Sequence record: NC_048178.1
Direction: 5' to 3' (one strand)
Length of the DNA stretch: 41,912 nt
Origin: Escherichia phage Sortsne
The number at the start of each line of letters is the position of its first letter. The stretch's first letter is position 1. The translations under genes were made by a program, and so were the position numbers. Shown one piece after another: positions 4,495 through 37,757 of the stretch. The notes under the pieces were generated by a model, which was not told where the DNA came from, did not search any database, and saw nothing but the letters and a program-made list of their open reading frames with translations.

Positions 4495-4851
4495 ATGTCC
4501 GAACATACGACGCTCTGGCAATTGTTCCAGTTGTACCGGGTGGAGTTGGGTTATTCATTCATCGCGGCGTCTGTCGCGGTATTCCGTCACTGGCAATTAC
4601 GCCACCCATTCCGCGATATCGTAAGCGGCGGGGCCATCTGCGCGGCGGTGGCGTTCGGGATGAATAACATCCTGTCATTCTTTGGGGTCGATCATGGTAC
4701 GTGGGGTTATCTGGCGTCCGTGTTCCTGGGTTACGTGGGCGTGGAGACGGCGCTCGACTGGGCCAGCGAAAAGATCCCTTTCCTGAAAAAAATCCGCGCC
4801 ACCCCGGCGCATACTTCACCAGCGGAGGATCAGACCGATGGCAAAATTTAA
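4495..4851 (+). CDS. putative holin
   Basis: 118-aa protein with hydrophobic segments and charged C-terminus, immediately upstream of and overlapping the endolysin gene; position in lysis cassette. Confidence 0.5.
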   Translation: MSEHTTLWQLFQLYRVELGYSFIAASVAVFRHWQLRHPFRDIVSGGAICAAVAFGMNNILSFFGVDHGTWGYLASVFLGYVGVETALDWASEKIPFLKKIRATPAHTSPAEDQTDGKI

Positions 4852-5311
4852 GCTAAACGAACAGCGCCGCGCCTTTCTGGACGCGATCGCCTACTGCGAG
4901 GGGACCGACAACGGACGCCAGCAAACGCGAAACCACGGTTACGACGTGGTGGTGGGCGGCTCCCTGTTCTCCGACTATTCGAAGCATCCCGATCGCCTGG
5001 TGCGCCTGCGTCCGGGCCTCTCCTCCACGGCTGCTGGCCGCTACCAGTTGTTAAGCCGTTATTACGACGTGTACAAAAAACAGCTTGGCCTCCCGGACTT
5101 CGGGCCGGACAGCCAGGACCAGATCGCGCTCCAGCAAATCAGCGAGCGTAAAGCGCTGGAGGATATCGACGCGGGCCGGATCGAGTCTGCCGTGGCGAAG
5201 TGTAACAAGACGTGGGCCAGCCTGCCCGGCTCCCCTTACGGTCAGCATACCTACAGCATGGCCGTATTTCTGGAGCAATTCCGCAAGGCGGGCGGGAAGG
5301 TGGCCGCATGA
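4838..5311 (+). CDS. endolysin, lambda R-type lytic transglycosylase
   Basis: 157 aa; strong resemblance to lambda R as recalled (FLDAIAYCEGTDNGRQQTRNHGYDVVVGG...AGRYQLLSRYYD...WASLPG). Confidence 0.9.
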   Translation: MAKFKLNEQRRAFLDAIAYCEGTDNGRQQTRNHGYDVVVGGSLFSDYSKHPDRLVRLRPGLSSTAAGRYQLLSRYYDVYKKQLGLPDFGPDSQDQIALQQISERKALEDIDAGRIESAVAKCNKTWASLPGSPYGQHTYSMAVFLEQFRKAGGKVAA

Positions 5312-27116: not shown

Positions 27117-27572
27117 TTATTCCGCGCTGCCGTCGTCGTAAAATCGGCTATGCGCCCACGTTGATTGATTGCCCGCCCCGGTCGGCATATCGTTACGACG
27201 CTTGAGCGGCGGGACCTTGTAAAACTGGATCTTGATATCGTCCCATTTCTCCTTAAGGAGCGCCCGGACGTCTGGGGGGAGATCGCGCTGGTTGTCGATA
27301 AGCATCCGCTGGCCCAGCTTGAGCGCCAGGGCCTCCAGCGTCCACAGGTCCAGCCCGGAGTCCTCGTTCCCGTCCGGTACGCCGTCGGAGTTGGTGGTGA
27401 AGATATAGGGGAAGTCTAAGCCGTCGCGGATCTGCTCCGCCATGAGAGCCTCCAGATCAAACAGCCCATCCGTGATGGACTGTTGATCGGCTACCATTAG
27501 CGTTGCAGTCGAGGACAGACCAGCCCGGCGTAATGCCTGGTTTACGATCTGGATCTTCTGCAAGGTCGCCAT
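27117..27572 (-). CDS. tail accessory factor (P22 gp4-like)
   Basis: 151 aa; MPTGAGNQS and DLEALMAEQ segments resemble P22 gp4 as recalled. Confidence 0.65.
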   Translation of the reverse strand: MATLQKIQIVNQALRRAGLSSTATLMVADQQSITDGLFDLEALMAEQIRDGLDFPYIFTTNSDGVPDGNEDSGLDLWTLEALALKLGQRMLIDNQRDLPPDVRALLKEKWDDIKIQFYKVPPLKRRNDMPTGAGNQSTWAHSRFYDDGSAE

Positions 27573-28144
27573 TATTTTTTAGCCTTCGCTTTAGTGTCCA
27601 CTTTCTGGCCTTCGACTTTCTGGCCTTCTTTGGTGTCCGCCTTCTTGTCGTCAGCCTTCACCACTGCCGGGTCGTTCTTCTGCTCCGGCTCTTTGGTTTC
27701 CGGCTTAACGTCCACGTGGTCCGGCTGGTGCTCGCCCGCGATCACGGTTTCGCCTTCGTGGTGCTCCTTCTGGCCGTTCAGGCCCGCCTCGTCCGGGTTC
27801 GGGACGTCGGTCGCGTGTACCAGCTTACGCTCGCTCTCTGCCACTTCTACGGCGTCGATCTTCGCCTGCTGTTCGCGCTTGTCGATCTCGGCCTGAGTCT
27901 CGTCCTGTTCGCGCTTCTCGCGCTGCGCTTCCTTCTCTGCCGCTTCGGCGATCAGCTTGTCGAGTTCGGTCAGCTTTTCAGGATGATCCACCCAGAAGCC
28001 GGACGCAATTCGCTCTTGCGCTTCGTCCTCGTCGAAGATCGCATAGTGGGCCAGGAACGGGCCGCAACGGACAGCGGTCAGTCGGATCGCCTCGGTGATG
28101 ATGTTCGGGCGGGTATAAATCATTTGTTTGGTTTTACGGGACAT
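27572..28144 (-). CDS. hypothetical protein with Lys/Glu-rich low-complexity C-terminus
   Basis: 190 aa, GGAGAA RBS; lies between coat-gene terminator and gp4-like gene. Confidence 0.45.
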   Translation of the reverse strand: MSRKTKQMIYTRPNIITEAIRLTAVRCGPFLAHYAIFDEDEAQERIASGFWVDHPEKLTELDKLIAEAAEKEAQREKREQDETQAEIDKREQQAKIDAVEVAESERKLVHATDVPNPDEAGLNGQKEHHEGETVIAGEHQPDHVDVKPETKEPEQKNDPAVVKADDKKADTKEGQKVEGQKVDTKAKAKK

Positions 28145-28189
28145 TGTGACTTCTCCGGGTCGGTTGTTAACGGGTCAAGTATAAGCCAA

Positions 28190-28217
28190 AAAAAAGAGGC
28201 CACAAAGGCCCCTTTTC
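28190..28217 (-). terminator. intrinsic terminator after major capsid gene
   Basis: GC hairpin followed by U8 on minus strand directly downstream of coat stop codon. Confidence 0.6.
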
Positions 28218-28235
28218 TCATAGTGCGCGGCTCGC

Positions 28236-29498
28236 TTACGCGGGCTGCTTCGGTAATACCAGGCCCACATATTCCGGGACCAGTACAGTAGTACCGTACA
28301 GCGTGGTAAAACGAGCGGTACACGCGCCGCTGATATGGTTGAAGTCGTAGGACATGATCAGAGTCGCGCCCTGTTTGGTGGTGCTGCGCATCACCTTCGG
28401 CCCCATATCGGACGGGAACGCCAGATTACCCCACATCAATTCCACGGAGCCGTCGGCCCATGCCAGGTTAGCGTTAGCCGCGACTTTGTTGATCACGGTC
28501 AGCGCTGCGCCGGAGGCTGCGTTCGCGTCCACGTTGGAGTAAGGACGGGAAGCCAGATCCGCGTTATCCGGCGGGAGGATCTGCGGGGTGATCGTGATGT
28601 TGTTGCCGGACACTTCCAGGACGCGGAACGTCTGGAGGTAGTCGGTCGTGTCTTTGCTGATCTGGTGTACAGAGTGAACGCCCGCGATAGTGAAGGCGTC
28701 GCCCGCTTCCAGACCGTGACCAGCGGAGACAGCGATCACGCCCTGGCGGTTATCCACCGGGATATCGTTCGCGTTCTTCGATACGACCTTATGCGCCGGG
28801 GCGGCGGTAAGGGTGATCGCACCAGTCGGACCAGCGCCCAGACGCGGGGAGATATCGGTCTTGTAAGCGTCGAAGCTCGCAATATCCGGGATCTTCGCTT
28901 TTTCAAAGGCGGATTGGTTGATGCCGGAGCTATACGCGCGGCCAGCCAGTTCTCCCGCGATATCCTTATAGGAGAAGGCGTTCAGGAACGCGCGACGGCT
29001 AACGCCCGCCGGGATGCCGATCGAGGTCATGAGGGCGTCCAGTTCTGCGAAGCTGTTCCACAGATCTTTACCCAGCGTACCAGTCGAGTTATCGCCGACG
29101 GTCACGACGTTAGTCGCGTAACGGCCTGCGGTGTTGATCAGGTCGGAGTCGATCTTCGCTGCGATACGCTGCGCGGCTGCGCGGCCCATTTCTTTCATGT
29201 ACTCCGGGTTACGCATTTCGCGCGCGTCCAGAGTCCACAGGACGTTCTGAGGCTCTTTATAAGCGGACGGGACCAGACGCTCGACGATATCGGTCGGACG
29301 CTTACCAGTCAGATCCAGACCTTCCAGGAGGTCGGCGTGGTAACGCTGCGGGCGGTAAATTACATCGCCTGCGCGCTGCATGGTCTTATCTTCCGGGCGG
29401 AACTTCGCCGCGTTCTGGGAGACTACGCAAGAGGCGTCGAAGCTCTCCACGTACTCCTCGAACATGATTTCAATCGTTTTTACATGCTGGTTAGCCAT
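28236..29498 (-). CDS. major capsid (coat) protein
   Basis: 420 aa, position after scaffold as in P22, followed by an intrinsic terminator; size matches P22 coat. Confidence 0.75.
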   Translation of the reverse strand: MANQHVKTIEIMFEEYVESFDASCVVSQNAAKFRPEDKTMQRAGDVIYRPQRYHADLLEGLDLTGKRPTDIVERLVPSAYKEPQNVLWTLDAREMRNPEYMKEMGRAAAQRIAAKIDSDLINTAGRYATNVVTVGDNSTGTLGKDLWNSFAELDALMTSIGIPAGVSRRAFLNAFSYKDIAGELAGRAYSSGINQSAFEKAKIPDIASFDAYKTDISPRLGAGPTGAITLTAAPAHKVVSKNANDIPVDNRQGVIAVSAGHGLEAGDAFTIAGVHSVHQISKDTTDYLQTFRVLEVSGNNITITPQILPPDNADLASRPYSNVDANAASGAALTVINKVAANANLAWADGSVELMWGNLAFPSDMGPKVMRSTTKQGATLIMSYDFNHISGACTARFTTLYGTTVLVPEYVGLVLPKQPA

Positions 29499-29529
29499 GC
29501 TCTTTTCTCCACCGATGGATTAAAAATGG

Positions 29530-30477
29530 TTAGTCTTTTTTCAGCTTTTCTTTCATGGCGAAATAATCCGTCCAGTCCCCGGACTGCTGCGCCTTAGCGC
29601 GCGCTGCCTCAAGTTGGCCGATATTTTTCGCCCCGCCGCTTCCCTTAACTTTGGGCGCGCCGTTAACGTCCCGTTTCACCTTCGGCGCGGTCCCTGCTCG
29701 GCGATCGATATCGGCGATTAGGTAGCCCAGGCGAATATGGTCGCTAGTATAGGCTTCTTCGATCTCCTGTCGCAATTTTTCATTGCGGGCCAGTGCCATA
29801 ACGGTAAGCGTCGGTTTCTGGCTGTTCAGGAGTAAAGCGGCCTGTAACGGCTCCGGCAATTCTGCCACGATCTCCTCGGCTCGTTCATAGCCTGCGATCT
29901 TCTTGATCGCGGTCGCGCGTTCTTCCCGGTAGACCTTGCCCTTTTCTTCGAGTTTGGTCTGGAATACCTGCGCGCGCTGCTGCTGTTCCTGCTGGCGGGC
30001 TTCGATCTTGCCTTTCTGCTCGTGCCATTCGTCCAGCTTCTCCGCGAGTTTCTCCGGGTCCCAGTCGATCCCCTCGTCGCCTAACTGCGGCTTAGGAGGT
30101 ACTTCGAGCGGGAGCGGGCCGGATTGCTGCGGCTGCTGCTGGGTGGATTGCTTAAGAGCGCGTTTTTGCTCGCGGATCGTCGCGCGTAGGCGCTTCACCG
30201 TTTCGCTGTCTTGTTCCTGATCATCGTCGTCGGTGGCTGGAGCGGCCAGGGCCTCGCCGTCGAAGGTAAACTCCTCCTCGTCGTCCTCGCCTTCGTTACC
30301 TTCGCCGCCTTCGCTGCCTTCGCTGCCTTCGCCGTCGTTGTCGTCGGTGTCGGTGTCGGTGCTGCGGTCGGTGTCGGTGTCGTTGTCGCGGTCGTCGTCG
30401 TGGTTCTGGTTGTCCAGATCCGCGTCGGTGGTGGTTACTTCTTCGTTGTCGTTGCCTACGTCCTGATTTCCGAACAT
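29530..30477 (-). CDS. scaffolding protein
   Basis: 315 aa, highly acidic repetitive N-terminus (TDTDTD, EGSEGSEG), coiled-coil body, basic C-terminus; directly upstream of coat. Confidence 0.65.
   Translation of the reverse strand: MFGNQDVGNDNEEVTTTDADLDNQNHDDDRDNDTDTDRSTDTDTDDNDGEGSEGSEGGEGNEGEDDEEEFTFDGEALAAPATDDDDQEQDSETVKRLRATIREQKRALKQSTQQQPQQSGPLPLEVPPKPQLGDEGIDWDPEKLAEKLDEWHEQKGKIEARQQEQQQRAQVFQTKLEEKGKVYREERATAIKKIAGYERAEEIVAELPEPLQAALLLNSQKPTLTVMALARNEKLRQEIEEAYTSDHIRLGYLIADIDRRAGTAPKVKRDVNGAPKVKGSGGAKNIGQLEAARAKAQQSGDWTDYFAMKEKLKKD
30290..30420. repeat. intragenic short tandem repeats (CCTTCGCYG and GTCGGT units) in the scaffold gene
   Basis: Encodes the acidic EGSEGSEG / TDTDTD low-complexity tract. 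Confidence 0.5.
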
Positions 30478-30600
30478 GTATAGATCCTCTCTCGTTACGC
30501 GATGTATTCGCCCATCGGTGGCGCGAGTAAGTGTAAGCGAGGATCGGGGGGAATTGCAAACAGGGGAGATCGCGGTTAACGATCCCCCAGAGGTGGCGGG

Positions 30601-30990
30601 CTATTTCTTGTCTAACTGGTGTCTTAAGCGGGCGACTTCACCATACAAAATCCGAATGTGATCGGCGAAGAACTTCGACTCCTCTCCCGGCGTCACGTGG
30701 ATCGGGATCATGTAGTACGTCGCCCGGCCCTTCGCTGGCTCGTCCGGCGTCGGCTCCGTCACTTCCGCCTCGGAGTAGGCGATCCGGTACTCCGCGCCCT
30801 GCGGCGGGTTAGGCTTCCGGTCGCCCGGCTTCATTTCCTTGAGGTAGGCCAGATACTGCTCCATCTGCTCGTCCGTCGGGGCAAACTCCACAAAGCCATC
30901 GAGCGGATCGTGGAGCGGCTCGCCTTCGACCTCCCGGATCTGGCGGGCCATGACGCCGCCTAAAAAGTGGTAACGGTGGGTCATTTTCAT
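30601..30990 (-). CDS. hypothetical protein (portal-scaffold insertion, gene 3 of 3)
   Basis: Start refined to ATG at 30990 (ATGA overlap with upstream stop). Confidence 0.4.
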   Translation of the reverse strand: MKMTHRYHFLGGVMARQIREVEGEPLHDPLDGFVEFAPTDEQMEQYLAYLKEMKPGDRKPNPPQGAEYRIAYSEAEVTEPTPDEPAKGRATYYMIPIHVTPGEESKFFADHIRILYGEVARLRHQLDKK

Positions 30991-31403
30991 TTGTTGCGCG
31001 CTCCGATCATGGCTTGCCAGGTAAACACGACCGTATCGGAAAGAAGCTCGTCCACTCCCTCCTCCTCCATCTGCTCGTAAAGTCCATCGAGAGCGCCGGG
31101 GATCTGCTCCCATAGGGCTTTACGTCCGGCCTCGATCTGCTCCGCCGTCGGCTGGAGTTCCACCTCGATCGGGGCCGGAGCGACTTCGCCCGCCTTCACC
31201 TGCGGCTCCGCGTTGGTCATGAGGGCCTCGACCTGCATCGCCACGATAGCGATCGCCATGCCATACGCCGCCAGATCCTGCTCGGTCGGCTGCTGAATGA
31301 AACGGCCAGCCAGTCGGGCCTCGTGCTGCTTCACCAGCGCCTCGATCCCCATTTCTTCGGCCTGGGCCAGCATGATCGCGCGCATTGCTTTTGCTTCGTT
31401 CAT
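30987..31403 (-). CDS. hypothetical acidic protein (portal-scaffold insertion, gene 2 of 3)
   Basis: 138-aa ORF preceded by GGCCCC-CACA-GGGGCC hairpin and CCAACCAACGAGAGAGAC leader. Confidence 0.45.
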   Translation of the reverse strand: MNEAKAMRAIMLAQAEEMGIEALVKQHEARLAGRFIQQPTEQDLAAYGMAIAIVAMQVEALMTNAEPQVKAGEVAPAPIEVELQPTAEQIEAGRKALWEQIPGALDGLYEQMEEEGVDELLSDTVVFTWQAMIGARNK

Positions 31404-31453
31404 CGTTTTGTCTCTCTCGTTGGTTGGTTAGGCCCCCACAGGGGCCGGGTTAG

Positions 31454-31897
31454 TTATGCGTGGCCTTGCGGCTGCGCGCCCAGAAGGTCGAGCGTCGGCT
31501 GGATATCTTCCTCCGCTGCCGGGTGCGGGATATGGAGGCCGGGGGACTGTTTGCCCGCCTTGAGGTGGGTCATAACGGCGTCCCAGATTGCCACGACGTC
31601 GGCCAGCGCGTAGTCCGCCAGGATCTTCTCGTGGATGGCCTGAGCGCCGTCCTCGTTGTTGAACTCCAGGACCTGCTCGACGGTCGGCATGGTGTTGTTA
31701 AAGCGCTGCATCACGCGGGCCATTACAACCGTCCCCACGCCGCGAGATAAAAACACGTTGCCGTCGTCGTGGGACAGCATCACCGCGATCTCCGGCTCGT
31801 CTGTCTCCGGGTGGTGCGCCAGGGCCAGCGTCAGGAGGCCACCGCGTGGGCCGTGTTCGAATACGCGGGCGGATTTGGTGGTGGTGATCTCTTTCAT
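31454..31897 (-). CDS. hypothetical protein (portal-scaffold insertion, gene 1 of 3)
   Basis: 147-aa ORF with ACGGAG RBS. Confidence 0.45.
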   Translation of the reverse strand: MKEITTTKSARVFEHGPRGGLLTLALAHHPETDEPEIAVMLSHDDGNVFLSRGVGTVVMARVMQRFNNTMPTVEQVLEFNNEDGAQAIHEKILADYALADVVAIWDAVMTHLKAGKQSPGLHIPHPAAEEDIQPTLDLLGAQPQGHA

Positions 31898-31997: not shown

Positions 31998-34232
31998 TTA
32001 TTGGGCGGCGTTGTCCAGCGTCCGATCGGCCTGCTGCTGCGCCTGGCGTTCTGCCAGTTCGCGGGCGGCGTTGTCGTTCTGCTGCTGGTGTCCCTGGCCC
32101 ACGGAGCGGAGGAACAGGTCCGCCTGTTTGTGGGCGTCGTCCTTCTCCGCCGTGACGTACTTTTGCAGGATGGCGATCGCGGACAATAGCTGTTCCTGCG
32201 GGATCGCTGCGGCTTCGGCCATCGTTTTGACGGTCTGGGCCTGCTTAAGCTGCGCGCCGCTGCTGGAGTCCTGCGCCTTGAGTTGCAGTTCTGCGCGCTT
32301 GTTCTCCTGCTCCATCACTGCCGCCTGCCCCTGGGCCGCTACGCCCTGCGCTGCGATCATCTGCGGGTCCGGCTGCTGCTGTTGCGCCTGCTGGGCCTGC
32401 TCGACCATCGCCTTTTCCTCGTCCGTCTGAGGCTGCACGATGCCAGAGAGGAGCATCTGTTTACGGCTGTACTCTTTGAAGTCCTGCAAGCCTTCGCCGT
32501 CCATGTTCGCAATGATCAGCGACATGACGATCGCCGCGTTCGGGTCGTTCGGGGCCATCGTGGCGAGGAGGTTCGTCAGACTGCGGACCGTTGCCTGGCG
32601 CTTCGTCTGGGAGGACTCGCCAACGTCGGCGACAACCTCATATTTTCCGCGCTTGAGGTCGTTAATCGCGATCGCCTCTTTGGTGGTGCGGTCGATCACT
32701 TTCCCGGTCATTAACACGAGGTCGTCGGTCCCGTCCTCGTTCTCGATCCTCACGTAGTTCTCGGAGCCGTAGACCTTGCGGGCGGCGGAGAGGTAGACGC
32801 GGCCACAGTGGCGGAGGGTTTTCGCCAGGTTGTCCATATAGAGCGCGCCCTGGCCGTCCATGCGGGCGAAAATTGCCTCCACGGTTTCGGTCGCCAGGTT
32901 CGACGGGAGCGCCTCAAGCTGGGAGGAGCCGACGATCTGCTGGATGGTCCCGCCCGTGTACTGTAGGACCGCTGCCAGCGCCGGAGAAAGCGGCGTTGAT
33001 GGCGTGTACCCTAACGGGCCAGCCTGCGCCACGACCTCACCAGAAGCGTTACGGAGCGATTTAGCGGGCAAGTATGCCGGGCGGTTCGTGTTACGTTCCC
33101 CCCAGGCGTCCGCCAGCTTGCCGGGAATCATATCAATATCCATGATCGGGATATTGTCGCCGCCTGCCTGCGCTGCCTGGTCGGCCATCATGGACACGAT
33201 CAGGTTTTCCAGTCGCTGGGCGTCCATTGCGAGGGTGGCGTGGCCCATTACGCGCTCCTGGTTGTCGATAAACGAGCGGCGCGCGTTGAAGATAAAGACC
33301 GGAATCCAGTCGAACGGGATCAGCTTCGGCTCCTCGATCCACTCTCCGCCGGAGAACAGCCCGCAATAAACCTTACGGCGCTTAACCTTACGGCTCTTGA
33401 GTTTCTTCCAGCCTGCGGCCTTTAGCTCGTCCTCGATCAGATCGATATCGTCCTCGTCGTAGACCTCCGTCTCCCCGGTGAGTGGGTTCTTATAGGAGAT
33501 CACGGTGGTGTCCTCGATCTTCACCTCGTACCAGCGGGCGATATAGATCGCGTCCTTCGTGGCCCAGTCGAAATTTTTCCCGGTGTTGAGTTCCATCAGG
33601 TCCTCCGGGAGCATCGCGTCCGGGTACTCCTCCTCGTACTTGTCCGGGGTCATGCTGAATAGCTCGGCCATCCACATGGCATCCGAACGATCGTACATTT
33701 TGGAGTCGGGATCGACGAACAGGCACGAGGCCGGATCATAGATCGGGTAAAACGTGATATGCCGCTCCTCGTTGTCCGGGTCGAATTGGTCCTCCAGTTC
33801 GGTGTCCATGCGAAACGCGCCCATCCCGCCGTCGATCCCGTCGCCGTAGGTGTTATCGACGGACTCCGGCCCGTTGCTCTCGTTGTAGTCGGCGCGGAAT
33901 TTGCCGTTTAGCTTGTCGGCTAACTCCTCGCTGGCCTTGTCGTCCTTCGGACGGAATACCACGGAGACACGGTTCAGACGGTAGTCGGCGATCAGGCGGT
34001 CACACTCTCGCGCTACTTTGTTAAGCTCGAATCGAGGGTATTTCTCAAAGCGATCATCATCCATGCGAAAGCCGCTGTTAGTGCTGCCTTCCCACTGCGC
34101 GCCCGGTACGCGGACAAAGCGCTGGGTTTCGATAATCTTCTTGCGGCTCTGCTCCTCGCTGCTGATCGACTGGCTGAGGCGCTTACGTGCGCTCTCGTGC
34201 CAGTTCTGGGCCGACTTCGTTACTCGTGCCAT
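31998..34232 (-). CDS. portal protein (P22 gp1-like) with Gln-rich C-terminal barrel
   Basis: 744 aa, size and position as in P22-like phages; long Q/A-rich helical C-terminus. Confidence 0.85.
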   Translation of the reverse strand: MARVTKSAQNWHESARKRLSQSISSEEQSRKKIIETQRFVRVPGAQWEGSTNSGFRMDDDRFEKYPRFELNKVARECDRLIADYRLNRVSVVFRPKDDKASEELADKLNGKFRADYNESNGPESVDNTYGDGIDGGMGAFRMDTELEDQFDPDNEERHITFYPIYDPASCLFVDPDSKMYDRSDAMWMAELFSMTPDKYEEEYPDAMLPEDLMELNTGKNFDWATKDAIYIARWYEVKIEDTTVISYKNPLTGETEVYDEDDIDLIEDELKAAGWKKLKSRKVKRRKVYCGLFSGGEWIEEPKLIPFDWIPVFIFNARRSFIDNQERVMGHATLAMDAQRLENLIVSMMADQAAQAGGDNIPIMDIDMIPGKLADAWGERNTNRPAYLPAKSLRNASGEVVAQAGPLGYTPSTPLSPALAAVLQYTGGTIQQIVGSSQLEALPSNLATETVEAIFARMDGQGALYMDNLAKTLRHCGRVYLSAARKVYGSENYVRIENEDGTDDLVLMTGKVIDRTTKEAIAINDLKRGKYEVVADVGESSQTKRQATVRSLTNLLATMAPNDPNAAIVMSLIIANMDGEGLQDFKEYSRKQMLLSGIVQPQTDEEKAMVEQAQQAQQQQPDPQMIAAQGVAAQGQAAVMEQENKRAELQLKAQDSSSGAQLKQAQTVKTMAEAAAIPQEQLLSAIAILQKYVTAEKDDAHKQADLFLRSVGQGHQQQNDNAARELAERQAQQQADRTLDNAAQ

Positions 34233-34247: not shown

Positions 34248-35870
34248 TTAGCGGTTGCTCGGCACATTATAGCCGTTGTAATCGTCATTTTTCACGCGCT
34301 CCGGCGGCTGCATCAACATGCAAAGCACGTCGGCCATGCCAGGCGATTTCATTTTTAACTTGGTGCGCATCTGCGGCTTAGGCATACGCTGGAATTTCCC
34401 CTCCGTGTTGTAAACGCGGGGAATACGGCATACCTCGGCGCGTAGCTTCTGCATATGCTCCCCGATCCCCTCGCTGGAGAGGCTGATCAGCTCGTCCGGG
34501 TTCACGTACTCGCCGTGGACCACGGCCCGGTAAGTCTTTTCAAAGCGGCGGCGTAACAGGTAGATATCCTGGGAGCCTCGGTTCTTAAAAGCGTTCTGAT
34601 TTTTCAGAAGGTTGTCGCCTTCGGTCTTGTTATTTAGCCACGTATCAAGCTCCACCAGCCCGTCCGGCTGGTTCACGCCATCCCCGGCGTTATACCCCGA
34701 CACGAGGGTGTTAGTCGAGGCGTAAGCGTCGGTGATCTGGCGGCGGAGGCCAGCGCCCAGCCCTGCCCGGTCCCAGATAAACGCCTCCACGCCGTGATCC
34801 TTCGCCGTGTTCACGGCCTTGTCCGCTGCGTCGTTGGCGTCGCCTTCGAACCACTCCTCCATCCACGTGACCACGGAGCCGTAACGCTCGCCGTATGCCT
34901 TGTTATCCGCCCCGACGTCCGCCGGGTCGAGTGCGCCGATCCTCATGCCGGACGGCTTAAAGCCTAATTTCACATGAGCGTCGATCGCCGCGTCGAACCA
35001 CTCCGCCGGGATAATGGCATCCGGTACGCTGTCGTTAAAATGCCCTTCCCACACGTGATCGAACAGCGCGCGGGAGAGGGTTTTCCGGTCGAACTCCATT
35101 TCCGCCCGGAGTTCTGGGGGAAACCACGGATTATCCGACCAGTTAACGCGGATCACGAGGTGGAGATCGTCCTCGTAGATGCCGTCACGAAGGAGATCCT
35201 CCCAGAATGGATTGATAAATCGCTTCGAAAACGCATCCTCTGAGGAGCCGGGGTTCGCGGTGAATAGCATCATGCCGCCGGATTCGCGCATGGTCGGCGT
35301 TAGCTGGCGGATCGACTCCTCGGAAAAGGTCTGCGCCTCCTCACCCCAGAATCGACGATAACCGAACGCGGATTTAACCCCGGCGGGGTCGCGGGCCATC
35401 CCTTTAAAGCGGATGATCGCGCCGTTCTCGTGTCGGATCTCCTTCTCCAGTACCTCGAAGCCGTCCAGGTTCGACGCCTCGATCCGGTTGACGAGTAGCG
35501 GGTGTACGGAGTCCTTGATCGATGCCTGGTACTCACGAAGGCACAGGGCGCTCGTCGCCTCGTCGTGGGCGTCCGCGTCGATGATTGCGCCGACGGTGAG
35601 CGACTTCCCGGAGCCTCGGCCACCGACCAGGATCACAAAGCGCTTAGGCCGTAACAGGATCGGGGTCAGGACCTCCGCGATCGTCAGGTCGTGCGGGTCG
35701 CTGGTGTATACCCACTCGCCGTTAACCTTCTTCATGTTGTAGCAGTGGGCCGCACTGGTCCCATCCGGGCGGTAGACGCCGTAAACCAGCCCGCCCTCCT
35801 TCGCCTTATAGCGGAGTTGCGCCTCCAGTCGTGCGAGGCGCTCCAGCGCCTCCTTACGATTTCTTGCCAT
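34248..35870 (-). CDS. terminase large subunit
   Basis: Walker A VGGRGSGKS near N-terminus; C-terminal acidic RNase H-like nuclease region; upstream of portal. Confidence 0.85.
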   Translation of the reverse strand: MARNRKEALERLARLEAQLRYKAKEGGLVYGVYRPDGTSAAHCYNMKKVNGEWVYTSDPHDLTIAEVLTPILLRPKRFVILVGGRGSGKSLTVGAIIDADAHDEATSALCLREYQASIKDSVHPLLVNRIEASNLDGFEVLEKEIRHENGAIIRFKGMARDPAGVKSAFGYRRFWGEEAQTFSEESIRQLTPTMRESGGMMLFTANPGSSEDAFSKRFINPFWEDLLRDGIYEDDLHLVIRVNWSDNPWFPPELRAEMEFDRKTLSRALFDHVWEGHFNDSVPDAIIPAEWFDAAIDAHVKLGFKPSGMRIGALDPADVGADNKAYGERYGSVVTWMEEWFEGDANDAADKAVNTAKDHGVEAFIWDRAGLGAGLRRQITDAYASTNTLVSGYNAGDGVNQPDGLVELDTWLNNKTEGDNLLKNQNAFKNRGSQDIYLLRRRFEKTYRAVVHGEYVNPDELISLSSEGIGEHMQKLRAEVCRIPRVYNTEGKFQRMPKPQMRTKLKMKSPGMADVLCMLMQPPERVKNDDYNGYNVPSNR

Positions 35871-36276
35871 AGCCCAGATCCTTAAACGTCGCCTCGCACA
35901 AGTTGAACAGGGAGCCGACCAGATACGCCTCCGGCTCGTCGTTGTTCGGGTCCCACTCGATCCCCAGCGTGTCGCCGATGTAGTTCTTTGCGTGGATCAC
36001 CTCGTGGGCGATGGTCGTCCGCCAGTACGGCCCGCGACGGATGCCGATAAATACCAGTTTAACGTCGGCGGCGTGGTACTCGATCGCCGCGCCCTGCTGG
36101 ACAGGCTTCTCCCTGTTCCAATCCGGGAAGCATTCGCCCAGCTTCCCCACCATAGCCTCGTCTGCCGGGTCAAAGCACACGATAAAGTAAGGGTAAGGGG
36201 ACGCCGTGAACCATTTCAGGCCCAGCGCCTCCAGTCGTCCGTAAGTGTCCGGCGGTAACTTATTTTTTCGAGTCAT
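35854..36276 (-). CDS. small HExxH-motif protein (putative zinc metallopeptidase-like) between terminase genes
   Basis: 140 aa; TIAHEVIHAKNY contains HEVIH with acidic residues downstream; overlaps both neighbours by 17 nt. Confidence 0.45.
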   Translation of the reverse strand: MTRKNKLPPDTYGRLEALGLKWFTASPYPYFIVCFDPADEAMVGKLGECFPDWNREKPVQQGAAIEYHAADVKLVFIGIRRGPYWRTTIAHEVIHAKNYIGDTLGIEWDPNNDEPEAYLVGSLFNLCEATFKDLGYGKKS

Positions 36277-36805
36277 GGAGGAGTTGCTCCAGCGTTGCGA
36301 TACGTTCCAGGAGGTCGGACAGTTCGGCCACTTCTGCGCCGTGTCGGATCATCTTCACGAGGACCTCGGCGGCGTCGAACGGGATCACCCCGTCGGCCAC
36401 GTGCTGGGTTAGCTCGTCGATACGGTCGGCGGCGGTCGTGCCTTTGAGTTCGAATTGATAGATCGGCGCGGTCGGCTTCACGTAGGGGATAAGACGGCCC
36501 AGGATATCGCGCATCATGGCCGGGTCATAGAGGGACATTTCGATCGCGCGCTGGATGTATAGCTCCTCGGTAAGCGGGATCTCCACCATTTCGTCCTCCA
36601 TGATCGGGCGGTCGTTCTCGTCCAGCATGACCTCGCCCGTCTTGGGGTTGACCTTTTCGATCTTCTCCCCGGTGCGCTCCTTCATTTTCACCTTGCGGAG
36701 AGCCTCCAGCAAGATCGTGCGGAATTGCTTCTCCCTGCCACGGCGGGCGGGCTGGTTCTCCGCGCTAAACTTCTTGCCCTTCTTAAGATTCTGCTCGTTC
36801 GCCAT
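36260..36805 (-). CDS. putative terminase small subunit
   Basis: 181 aa with basic N-terminus (NLKKGKKFSAENQPARRGREK) and helical remainder; by position; identity uncertain. Confidence 0.4.
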   Translation of the reverse strand: MANEQNLKKGKKFSAENQPARRGREKQFRTILLEALRKVKMKERTGEKIEKVNPKTGEVMLDENDRPIMEDEMVEIPLTEELYIQRAIEMSLYDPAMMRDILGRLIPYVKPTAPIYQFELKGTTAADRIDELTQHVADGVIPFDAAEVLVKMIRHGAEVAELSDLLERIATLEQLLHDSKK

Positions 36806-36862: not shown

Positions 36863-36891
36863 TTTATACCGGGGCCGTGATCAAGTCCACG
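36863..36891 (-). promoter_or_regulatory. candidate late promoter (-10 TATAAA, weak -35) just upstream of terminator and terS
   Basis: Minus-strand TGGACT-N15-TATAAA; would give a short hairpin-plus-U8 transcript unless antiterminated. Confidence 0.25.
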
Positions 36892-37186
36892 GCGATCCCT
36901 TGCCGGGGGAGAGGTCCGGGCATAGGTGCATATTCTCCGGGGTGATAGGCCAGGGGCTAACCGGGTGACGGTACGCCAGGGAGTCGGCCTTCTTGGCGAT
37001 GTACCCCCGGACCTTCCCGCCGCCGCGCTGGCTGCTGTATGCCGCACAGATCACGCACGAGCCGTTAGTGGTGTATCGAGTGAAGTTGCCGGGGTGCTCC
37101 TTGCACTCCCCGCCGTGGTACGTCTTGCGCTTGAGGAGAAGGGCCTCCGCCCTGCTCCGCGCCACTGAGCGCTCTTTCGTCTCCAT
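36881..37186 (-). CDS. hypothetical Cys/His-containing protein (candidate late regulator)
   Basis: 101-aa ORF coupled to upstream gene (TGATG); 3' end overlaps a promoter-like -10 and precedes a terminator; coding status uncertain. Confidence 0.3.
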   Translation of the reverse strand: METKERSVARSRAEALLLKRKTYHGGECKEHPGNFTRYTTNGSCVICAAYSSQRGGGKVRGYIAKKADSLAYRHPVSPWPITPENMHLCPDLSPGKGSPWT

Positions 37187-37689
37187 CAGTCACAGCCCCC
37201 GGAGGAGGACGATCCGCTGTCGCTGCTGCCGGAGTCGTAGCTCCCGCCGTCGTCGTGGCTGGAGTGGTGGCGGCTGCTGCTGTCGTCGTGGCTGCTGGAG
37301 TGGCTGCGGTGGCTGCTGCTGTCCCAGTCCGCCCGGTCGCTGGTGTGGCAGATCGGATTGAGTGGCGAGGTCAGGGAAAGCGGGTTCAGCGGGTCGAGGT
37401 CGTCGCCCTGGTTGCGGAGTGCGCGCCGGGTCGGGTCGCTGCGGAGGGCGTTCGCCTCACGTGCTGCGGACTTGTCGGCCATGCTGCGGGGAGCCTGCAC
37501 GACCTTAGCCTGGGGACGGTTCGCCATCGTCTCGATCATGCGCTCCATACGCGCCTTACCGCTTAGGACGTCCTGGACGCTGCGCTGGTTGCAGTCGTCA
37601 CAGATCCAGAATACGTCCGCGCTCTCGGTCCATTTGCGCGGGGCCTGCTTGCCGCACGTGCGGCACTCTTTGAAACGTTTAAGGGACAT
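37186..37689 (-). CDS. zinc-ribbon protein with His/Ser/Asp-rich low-complexity tail
   Basis: Start refined to ATG 37689 with conserved CACGAGAGAGA leader; CRTCG...(17)...CDDC ribbon; C-terminal SSSHRSHSSSHDDSSSRHHSSHDD. Confidence 0.45.
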   Translation of the reverse strand: MSLKRFKECRTCGKQAPRKWTESADVFWICDDCNQRSVQDVLSGKARMERMIETMANRPQAKVVQAPRSMADKSAAREANALRSDPTRRALRNQGDDLDPLNPLSLTSPLNPICHTSDRADWDSSSHRSHSSSHDDSSSRHHSSHDDGGSYDSGSSDSGSSSSGGCD

Positions 37690-37757
37690 TGTGATCTCTC
37701 TCGTGGGTGGAAACGGCCCCAGCATAGCGCCGGGGCAAACATCATGCAAGCGTTAAA

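Follow-up and report, generated by a model that had tools for sequence, protein, structure and literature searches.

Phages are known to make pervasive use of zincin-like peptidases, and the zincin core consists of a small β-sheet, a helix carrying the HExxH motif and a next helix that contributes a glutamate ligand (PMC5512222). Single-domain zincins of roughly 110 aa have been termed mini-zincins, and those of the Glu-zincin type take their third ligand from a glutamate of the helix that follows (PMC3890501). Here we describe a gene of Escherichia phage Sortsne (NC_048178.1), termed gene Z, whose product is predicted to carry such a site. It was analysed within a stretch of 41,912 bp with a GC content of 60.0%, hereafter called the window; the podophages nearest to it in the databases belong to Murrayvirus and Sortsnevirus and share ~78-84% nucleotide identity with it. 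Gene Z encodes 140 aa and lies between the gene of an unannotated 181-aa protein, a candidate small terminase subunit (TerS), and that of the large terminase subunit (TerL). An earlier note on this DNA had singled out this open reading frame (ORF) for its HEVIH sequence and for its overlaps with the upstream gene and with the large terminase gene, and both features are indeed present: the first 17 nt of Z are shared with the 3′ end of the 181-aa ORF, and the last 17 nt with the start of the TerL ORF (Table 1). We propose, with a probability of roughly 0.6, that Z is an accessory, stand-alone minimal gluzincin-like metallo-hydrolase and not a terminase subunit.

Z is a member of PHROG 1365, a group that has no annotated function; it matches the profile at 5.4e-18 over positions 11-123 of 127 (113 covered), and a match to the same profile was obtained for all 91 of a set of diverse homologues. 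What was already known is thus the catalogue entry of the family as a PHROG of unknown function, and no study of it turned up in the literature. What is new is a distinct, always stand-alone family that has its own NDExxAY motif and a conserved slot in the terminase pair of one phage group. A word-indexed search returned only nine close homologues of Z, and an exhaustive hidden Markov model (HMM) search of 1.84 billion representatives returned 480 family proteins at E<=0.001, each representing a cluster at 50% identity. Among the 150 matches listed, the length ranges from 61 to 178 aa and the HMM match is centred on residues 87-133. The family extends over podophages, T-even phages, jumbo phages, flavophages and crAss-like phages, and nearly all of its occurrences are in phages or in settings that resemble prophages.

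An HExxH motif by itself is not significant here, since the window, read in all six frames, has four occurrences in ORFs of 60 aa or longer. The motif of Z is judged to be non-random because it is conserved, with HExxH present in 158 of 158 homologues and NDExxAY found 16-17 residues downstream in nearly all of them. In an alignment of 153 sequences, H91, E92, H95 and E114 are 100% conserved (all four are likewise invariant in alignments of 91 and 90 sequences), N112, D113, A117 and Y118 reach at least 95%, and N98, G105 and D109 are at ~83%. The family signature can be written as HExxH-x16-NDExxAY, which places the invariant glutamate 19 residues past the second histidine. HExxH-x18-E is the spacing of the M1 gluzincins, and that of thermolysin is one residue longer.

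An AlphaFold model of Z built on the 90-sequence alignment reached a predicted local distance difference test (pLDDT) score of 92.5 and a predicted template modelling (pTM) score of 0.86, and a model built from 10 sequences had a pLDDT of 84. The modelled N-terminal part comprises a helix (11-17), two strands (21-24 and 30-35), a second helix (40-49) and two further strands (62-68 and 73-79), so that, judged by element order, a small mixed β-sheet and a backing helix stand N-terminal to the active-site helix. In the C-terminal part, HEVIH (91-95) falls inside the predicted α-helix 85-104, which is followed by helix 114-133 with E114 in its first turn. This agrees with the earlier note, which had described HEVIH in a helix-like context with acidic residues downstream. 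The order of the elements in the model matches the zincin core of PMC5512222, which supports a zincin-like reading, and it also fits the mini-zincin idea of PMC3890501. The sub-threshold echoes in Pfam all came from HExxH peptidase families, namely SprT-like (10 of 91 family members), DUF5700 (6 of 91), M91 (3 of 91) and M78 (2 of 91), and two of the 91 weakly matched the 'metallo-protease' group phrog_87. SprT-like identity itself was considered and set aside: the best of the ten weak matches, at E 0.004, lies below threshold and probably reflects the motif helix alone, and we keep it as a hint. A minimal gluzincin-like metal site is our best reading of these data because HExxH and the glutamate are invariant and the two motifs stand on consecutive helices after a small β-sheet; the assignment of Z to the zincin type is thus based on an invariant motif and on the predicted order of secondary structure elements, as distinct from demonstrated similarity of fold.

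The genomic settings of the family argue that such a protein would be accessory. Outside the podophage group around Sortsne, the family is mostly located in replication or early modules and is not linked to packaging. In ESCO47 (Mosigvirus), the only T-even carrier in the phage collection, a member lies between nrd genes and gp55. Flavobacterium phage Fpv10 has one between two DNA methyltransferase genes, 2.6 kb from a TerS of its own that is Pfam-verified (GP3_package, 1.7e-19) and stands beside TerL, and in Serratia phage Otaku a member is placed between DNA polymerase and a nuclease. Jumbo phages also carry family members, and metagenomic contigs hold them amid small early-type genes (RNA ligase, HU, Tad2-like, YopX, DnaB, SIR2). 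A neighbour census over 52 non-redundant IMG/VR loci with 96 immediate neighbours was seeded from the NDEPEAY motif of a 14-sequence subset and is therefore biased toward the NDEPEAY subfamily; TerL was a neighbour at one of the 52 loci, which is IME_EC2 itself, and the annotated neighbours included SSB, primase/helicase, DnaB, methyltransferases, MazG, thymidylate synthase, homing endonucleases and GroES/GroEL. Several family members adjoin phage-encoded GroES/GroEL genes and homing endonucleases (IMG/VR loci L018-L097). Since close relatives package their DNA without Z, and since unrelated phages mostly carry their family members in regions of the replication, early or moron type, we regard Z as accessory.

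In the mechanism that we propose, Z would be a cytoplasmic protein of roughly 16 kDa, produced late along with the terminase and acting most probably as a zinc peptidase. The metal is predicted to be held by His91 and His95 of one helix and by Glu114 at the start of the next, with Glu92 as the putative general base and with Asn112, Asp113 and Tyr118 expected to line the site. The likeliest class of substrate would be a protein of the host, in a takeover or counter-defence function, or else one of the phage's own proteins that has to be trimmed. That the Z slot evolves fast and in a mosaic manner fits a role of the conflict type.

Several results weigh against this proposal. Z has no match in Pfam and none of the 91 family members reaches the Pfam threshold; searches of Z against NCBIfam, PADLOC and PDB sequences gave nothing significant, and the NCBIfam and PDB nulls count on the unfavourable side; and neither in sequence nor in structure did Z match the mini-Glu-zincins of the 4JIU type (M95, proabylysin). 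The only PDB profile match was to HtpX/M48, an HExxH peptidase as well, at E=1.3 and over the motif helix alone. Fold searching, as the earlier note had suggested, turned out negative: with a model of high confidence in hand, no solved metallopeptidase or zincin was recovered, and for that reason the zincin fold of Z is putative. An hhalign comparison with thermolysin gave an alignment over no more than the 15 residues of the HExxH helix, at a probability of 23%; we list it among the unfavourable results and judge it uninformative either way. A last group of points concerns the terminase genes and is taken up below.

These nulls would suit a different account, in which the fold of Z is novel, its HExxH...E motif arose by convergence and the protein is not a peptidase, being instead, for example, a metal-dependent hydrolase of some other substrate, linked to nucleotides or nucleic acids, or else a purely metal-binding or regulatory protein. 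It would explain why a model with a pLDDT of 92.5 has no structural neighbour among solved zincins and why the profile of no peptidase family is significantly linked to Z, and it is also favoured by the frequent placement of family members near genes for DNA polymerase, methyltransferase, nuclease, SSB or helicase. However, invariant His, Glu and His, followed after 18 residues by Glu, on consecutive helices after a β-sheet, are the gluzincin signature as defined in PMC5512222, and every weak sequence echo belongs to an HExxH peptidase family, so that we hold the novel-fold account to be unlikely, while giving it serious thought.

The alternative that Z serves packaging or virion maturation, either as a protease that trims the TerS-like protein, the portal or the scaffold, or as a metal-dependent helper of the terminase, draws on the neighbourhood of the gene. 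The genes for the TerS-like protein, Z and TerL form a trio, overlapping by 11-38 nt at either junction, in IME_EC2 (Murrayvirus), IME279 (Sortsnevirus), Skarpretter (Skarprettervirus), C130_2 and Kosakonia phage Kc259, and in Stutzerimonas phage STP9, an unannotated record compared for gene adjacency only, the homologues of the TerS-like protein and of Z are adjacent. This arrangement has been kept despite an identity of only ~27-37% between the Z proteins of the trio-bearing lineages, with Z diverging much faster than its neighbours TerS-like and TerL, and its retention across six lineages, STP9 included, hints at a packaging-linked role. A second and independent adjacency of this kind occurs in a phage of Bacteroidota, the crAss-like cr116_1 (NC_055882, locus 4529..5168), in which a 115-aa member (VOG3488) overlaps by 23 nt the 3′ end of a gene annotated as 'terminase small subunit/excisionase', itself with a sub-threshold HTH_17 match only; here again a packaging link is hinted at, and both cases count against an accessory enzyme. 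A further crAss-like contig has its member within a structural block near ring proteins, and in the window a scaffold and a major head protein are encoded, with no recognisable prohead protease in the head module (27572..31897, minus strand). An HNH protein is said, in work of Kala et al. from 2014, to assist HK97-type terminases, which offers an analogy. Against all this stand the close relatives that have the TerS-like/TerL pair but lack Z, the members of Fpv10, ESCO47 and Otaku, which lie away from terminase genes, and the 51 of 52 IMG/VR loci without a terminase neighbour, where the annotated neighbours are genes of replication, nucleotide metabolism, homing endonucleases and chaperonins. 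We therefore find a packaging or maturation factor doubtful, and a shade less probable than a non-peptidase of novel fold.

On a further, more novel reading, Z might possess a previously unrecognised fold with a gluzincin-like site, and its family might have been recruited beside the small terminase gene twice over, once in podophages of the Sortsne type and independently in part of the crAss-like phages. It would then act at the time of packaging, for instance as a late protease directed against an immune sensor by which the host detects terminase or portal, and which it would destroy, or as one by which the small terminase itself is processed. Avs-type sensors recognise terminase and portal proteins. 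We regard this reading as improbable.

The identity of the small terminase bears on the remaining alternative. Homologues of the 181-aa protein were found in ~276 phage records (Salmonella, Vibrio, Klebsiella and Escherichia phages), unannotated in every one and always encoded just upstream of TerL, and in the Z-less relatives Kosakonia phage Kc166B, Vibrio phage 1.276.O and Salmonella phage Seszw_1 the homologue directly abuts or overlaps TerL. Its N-terminus is basic and conserved (F-x5-P ... R-x4-R ... LLEAL), and a heptad-like helix stands at the C-terminal end. Searches against Pfam, PHROG, NCBIfam and PDB profiles matched no known TerS family, a search of 5.8 billion proteins returned 'hypothetical protein' entries only, and one marginal link led to a DUF5681 protein (E=1.9e-4). 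It is a TerS candidate because it abuts TerL where Z is absent, and it probably represents an unrecognised small-terminase family because of its constant position just upstream of TerL; we accordingly take this protein of PHROG 9747 to be probably the small terminase, by synteny only. The earlier note had offered as an alternative that Z itself might be the true small terminase. The place of Z immediately upstream of and overlapping TerL and the lack of any known TerS family match for the 181-aa protein speak for this, but it is barely credible and is ruled out by the family distribution, given that members are mostly far from terminase genes and coexist with bona fide TerS (Fpv10, ESCO47), that Z is missing where the 181-aa homologue directly overlaps TerL, that Z has no TerS match in Pfam, PHROG or NCBIfam, and that its invariant residues are of a catalytic type and not features of DNA binding or oligomerisation. 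The same note had held that homology to a small terminase family, with an HEVIH not conserved among homologues, would speak against a metallopeptidase; what we found is no TerS match and an invariant HExxH.

Table 1. Location of gene Z, its motifs and the neighbouring late genes in the window (positions are those of the whole stretch)
Feature	Position	Strand	Basis or remark
Gene Z, 140 aa, ATG start	35854..36276	minus	ORF call; PHROG 1365 member, predicted stand-alone mini zincin-like metallo-hydrolase
HEVIH codons (H91-E92-V93-I94-H95 = HExxH)	35992..36006	minus	on predicted helix 85-104
NDExxAY codons (N112-D113-E114-P115-E116-A117-Y118)	35923..35943	minus	putative third ligand of the metal is E114, which opens predicted helix 114-133
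Z/TerL junction: 17-nt overlap (35854..35870) and AAGGA (35879..35883), 8 nt ahead of the TerL ATG	35854..35883	minus	
Z start overlapping the end of the 181-aa ORF, with GGAG (36287..36290)	36260..36290	minus	
181-aa protein, PHROG 9747, unannotated	36260..36805	minus	candidate small terminase by synteny only
Large terminase subunit, 540 aa	34248..35870	minus	Pfam Terminase_3 3.2e-30; phrog_2 5.7e-41
P22-like portal protein, next after TerL in the same leftward late operon	31998..34232	minus	Pfam P22_portal 3.3e-156
Scaffolding protein	29530..30477	minus	phrog_648
Major head protein	28236..29498	minus	phrog_283

At the locus itself, a Shine-Dalgarno-like GGAG stands 10 nt ahead of the Z ATG, and between the genes the minus strand showed neither a promoter-like nor a terminator-like site. 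Because of the two overlaps, the Shine-Dalgarno-like sites that Z and TerL have of their own and the lack of promoter or terminator between them, the TerS-like, Z and TerL genes form one tightly packed unit. The earlier note had spoken of a protein translationally coupled between the two terminase genes: the position and the overlaps are as described, the coupling is plausible from the gene arrangement, and the upstream partner counts as a candidate small terminase on synteny. Both overlaps flanking Z are A-rich on the minus strand, CATGACTCGAAAAAATAAG at 36255..36280 and TATGGCAAGAAATCGTAAGG at 35848..35872, so that the overlapping frames are rich in Lys, Arg and Asn at both places, and IME279 and IME_EC2 have comparable A-runs at the corresponding junctions. 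The ORF that directly precedes the TerS-like gene (36881..37186, minus strand; phrog_30250) is Cys/His-rich, encodes 101 aa and has only a weak match to an HNH-endonuclease PHROG (E=0.12); its product might belong to the packaging module as a zinc-finger protein. Another ORF, of 187 aa (37186..37749, minus strand; phrog_13684), has a zinc-ribbon-like N-terminal part of the form CxxC...CxxC and a long low-complexity tail rich in Ser, His and Asp (SSSHRSHSSSHDDSSS...).

If active, Z would be among the smallest stand-alone enzymes of the metallopeptidase type, and the family that it would define comprises hundreds of sequence clusters, for which there is neither a Pfam model nor a structure that is solved or recognisably alike. 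Its scattered occurrence, its rapid divergence and the swapping of alleles at a fixed slot are typical of genes for host takeover or counter-defence, and the substrate of Z could therefore reveal a new point of phage-host conflict. For annotation, the protein of PHROG 9747 is the likely small terminase in several podophage and siphophage genera that have no annotated one, and the HExxH gene beside it should not be called a terminase subunit.

Small extra genes in or beside a terS-terL pair have precedents. The T7 genes 18.5 and 18.7, between genes 18 and 19, encode spanins, and gp74 of HK97 is an HNH nuclease encoded beside terS, a small metal-binding protein that helps the terminase. These share their placement with Z, but they are not known to have an HExxH or to be homologous to it. 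ImmA/IrrE proteins (M78, PF06114) resemble Z in being small HExxH-plus-Glu peptidases that are common in phages and mobile elements. The earlier note had put Z down as a minimal gluzincin or ImmA-type peptidase, and while the gluzincin-like site with its invariant HExxH and Glu on consecutive helices is upheld as the best reading, the ImmA type is not: Z has no PF06114 match, the two family members that echo M78 do so at E 0.064 or worse, and the gene lies in the late operon of a lytic podophage without an adjacent gene for a helix-turn-helix (HTH) repressor as substrate, no HTH family being detected by Pfam or PHROG in its two neighbours, the TerS-like protein and TerL. Also related in kind are the zincin-like metallopeptidase (MPTase) domains of the polyvalent proteins of phages and plasmids, which are phage-borne zincin cores with HExxH plus Glu as in Z; Iyer et al. 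2017 (PMC5512222) proposed that they process phage proteins or act early in conflicts by attacking proteins of the host. They are, however, domains of giant multidomain proteins that are often packaged in the virion, whereas the members of the Z family are stand-alone proteins of 60-180 aa with no significant profile link to them. In size and architecture, Z is comparable to the mini-zincins and mini-Glu-zincins, such as M95 proabylysin (PDB 4JIU) and Acel_2062 (PDB 3E11), which are likewise single domains of ~110-140 residues with a small β-sheet followed by the HExxH helix (PMC3890501), a likeness that we understand as functional and architectural, as opposed to demonstrated homology.

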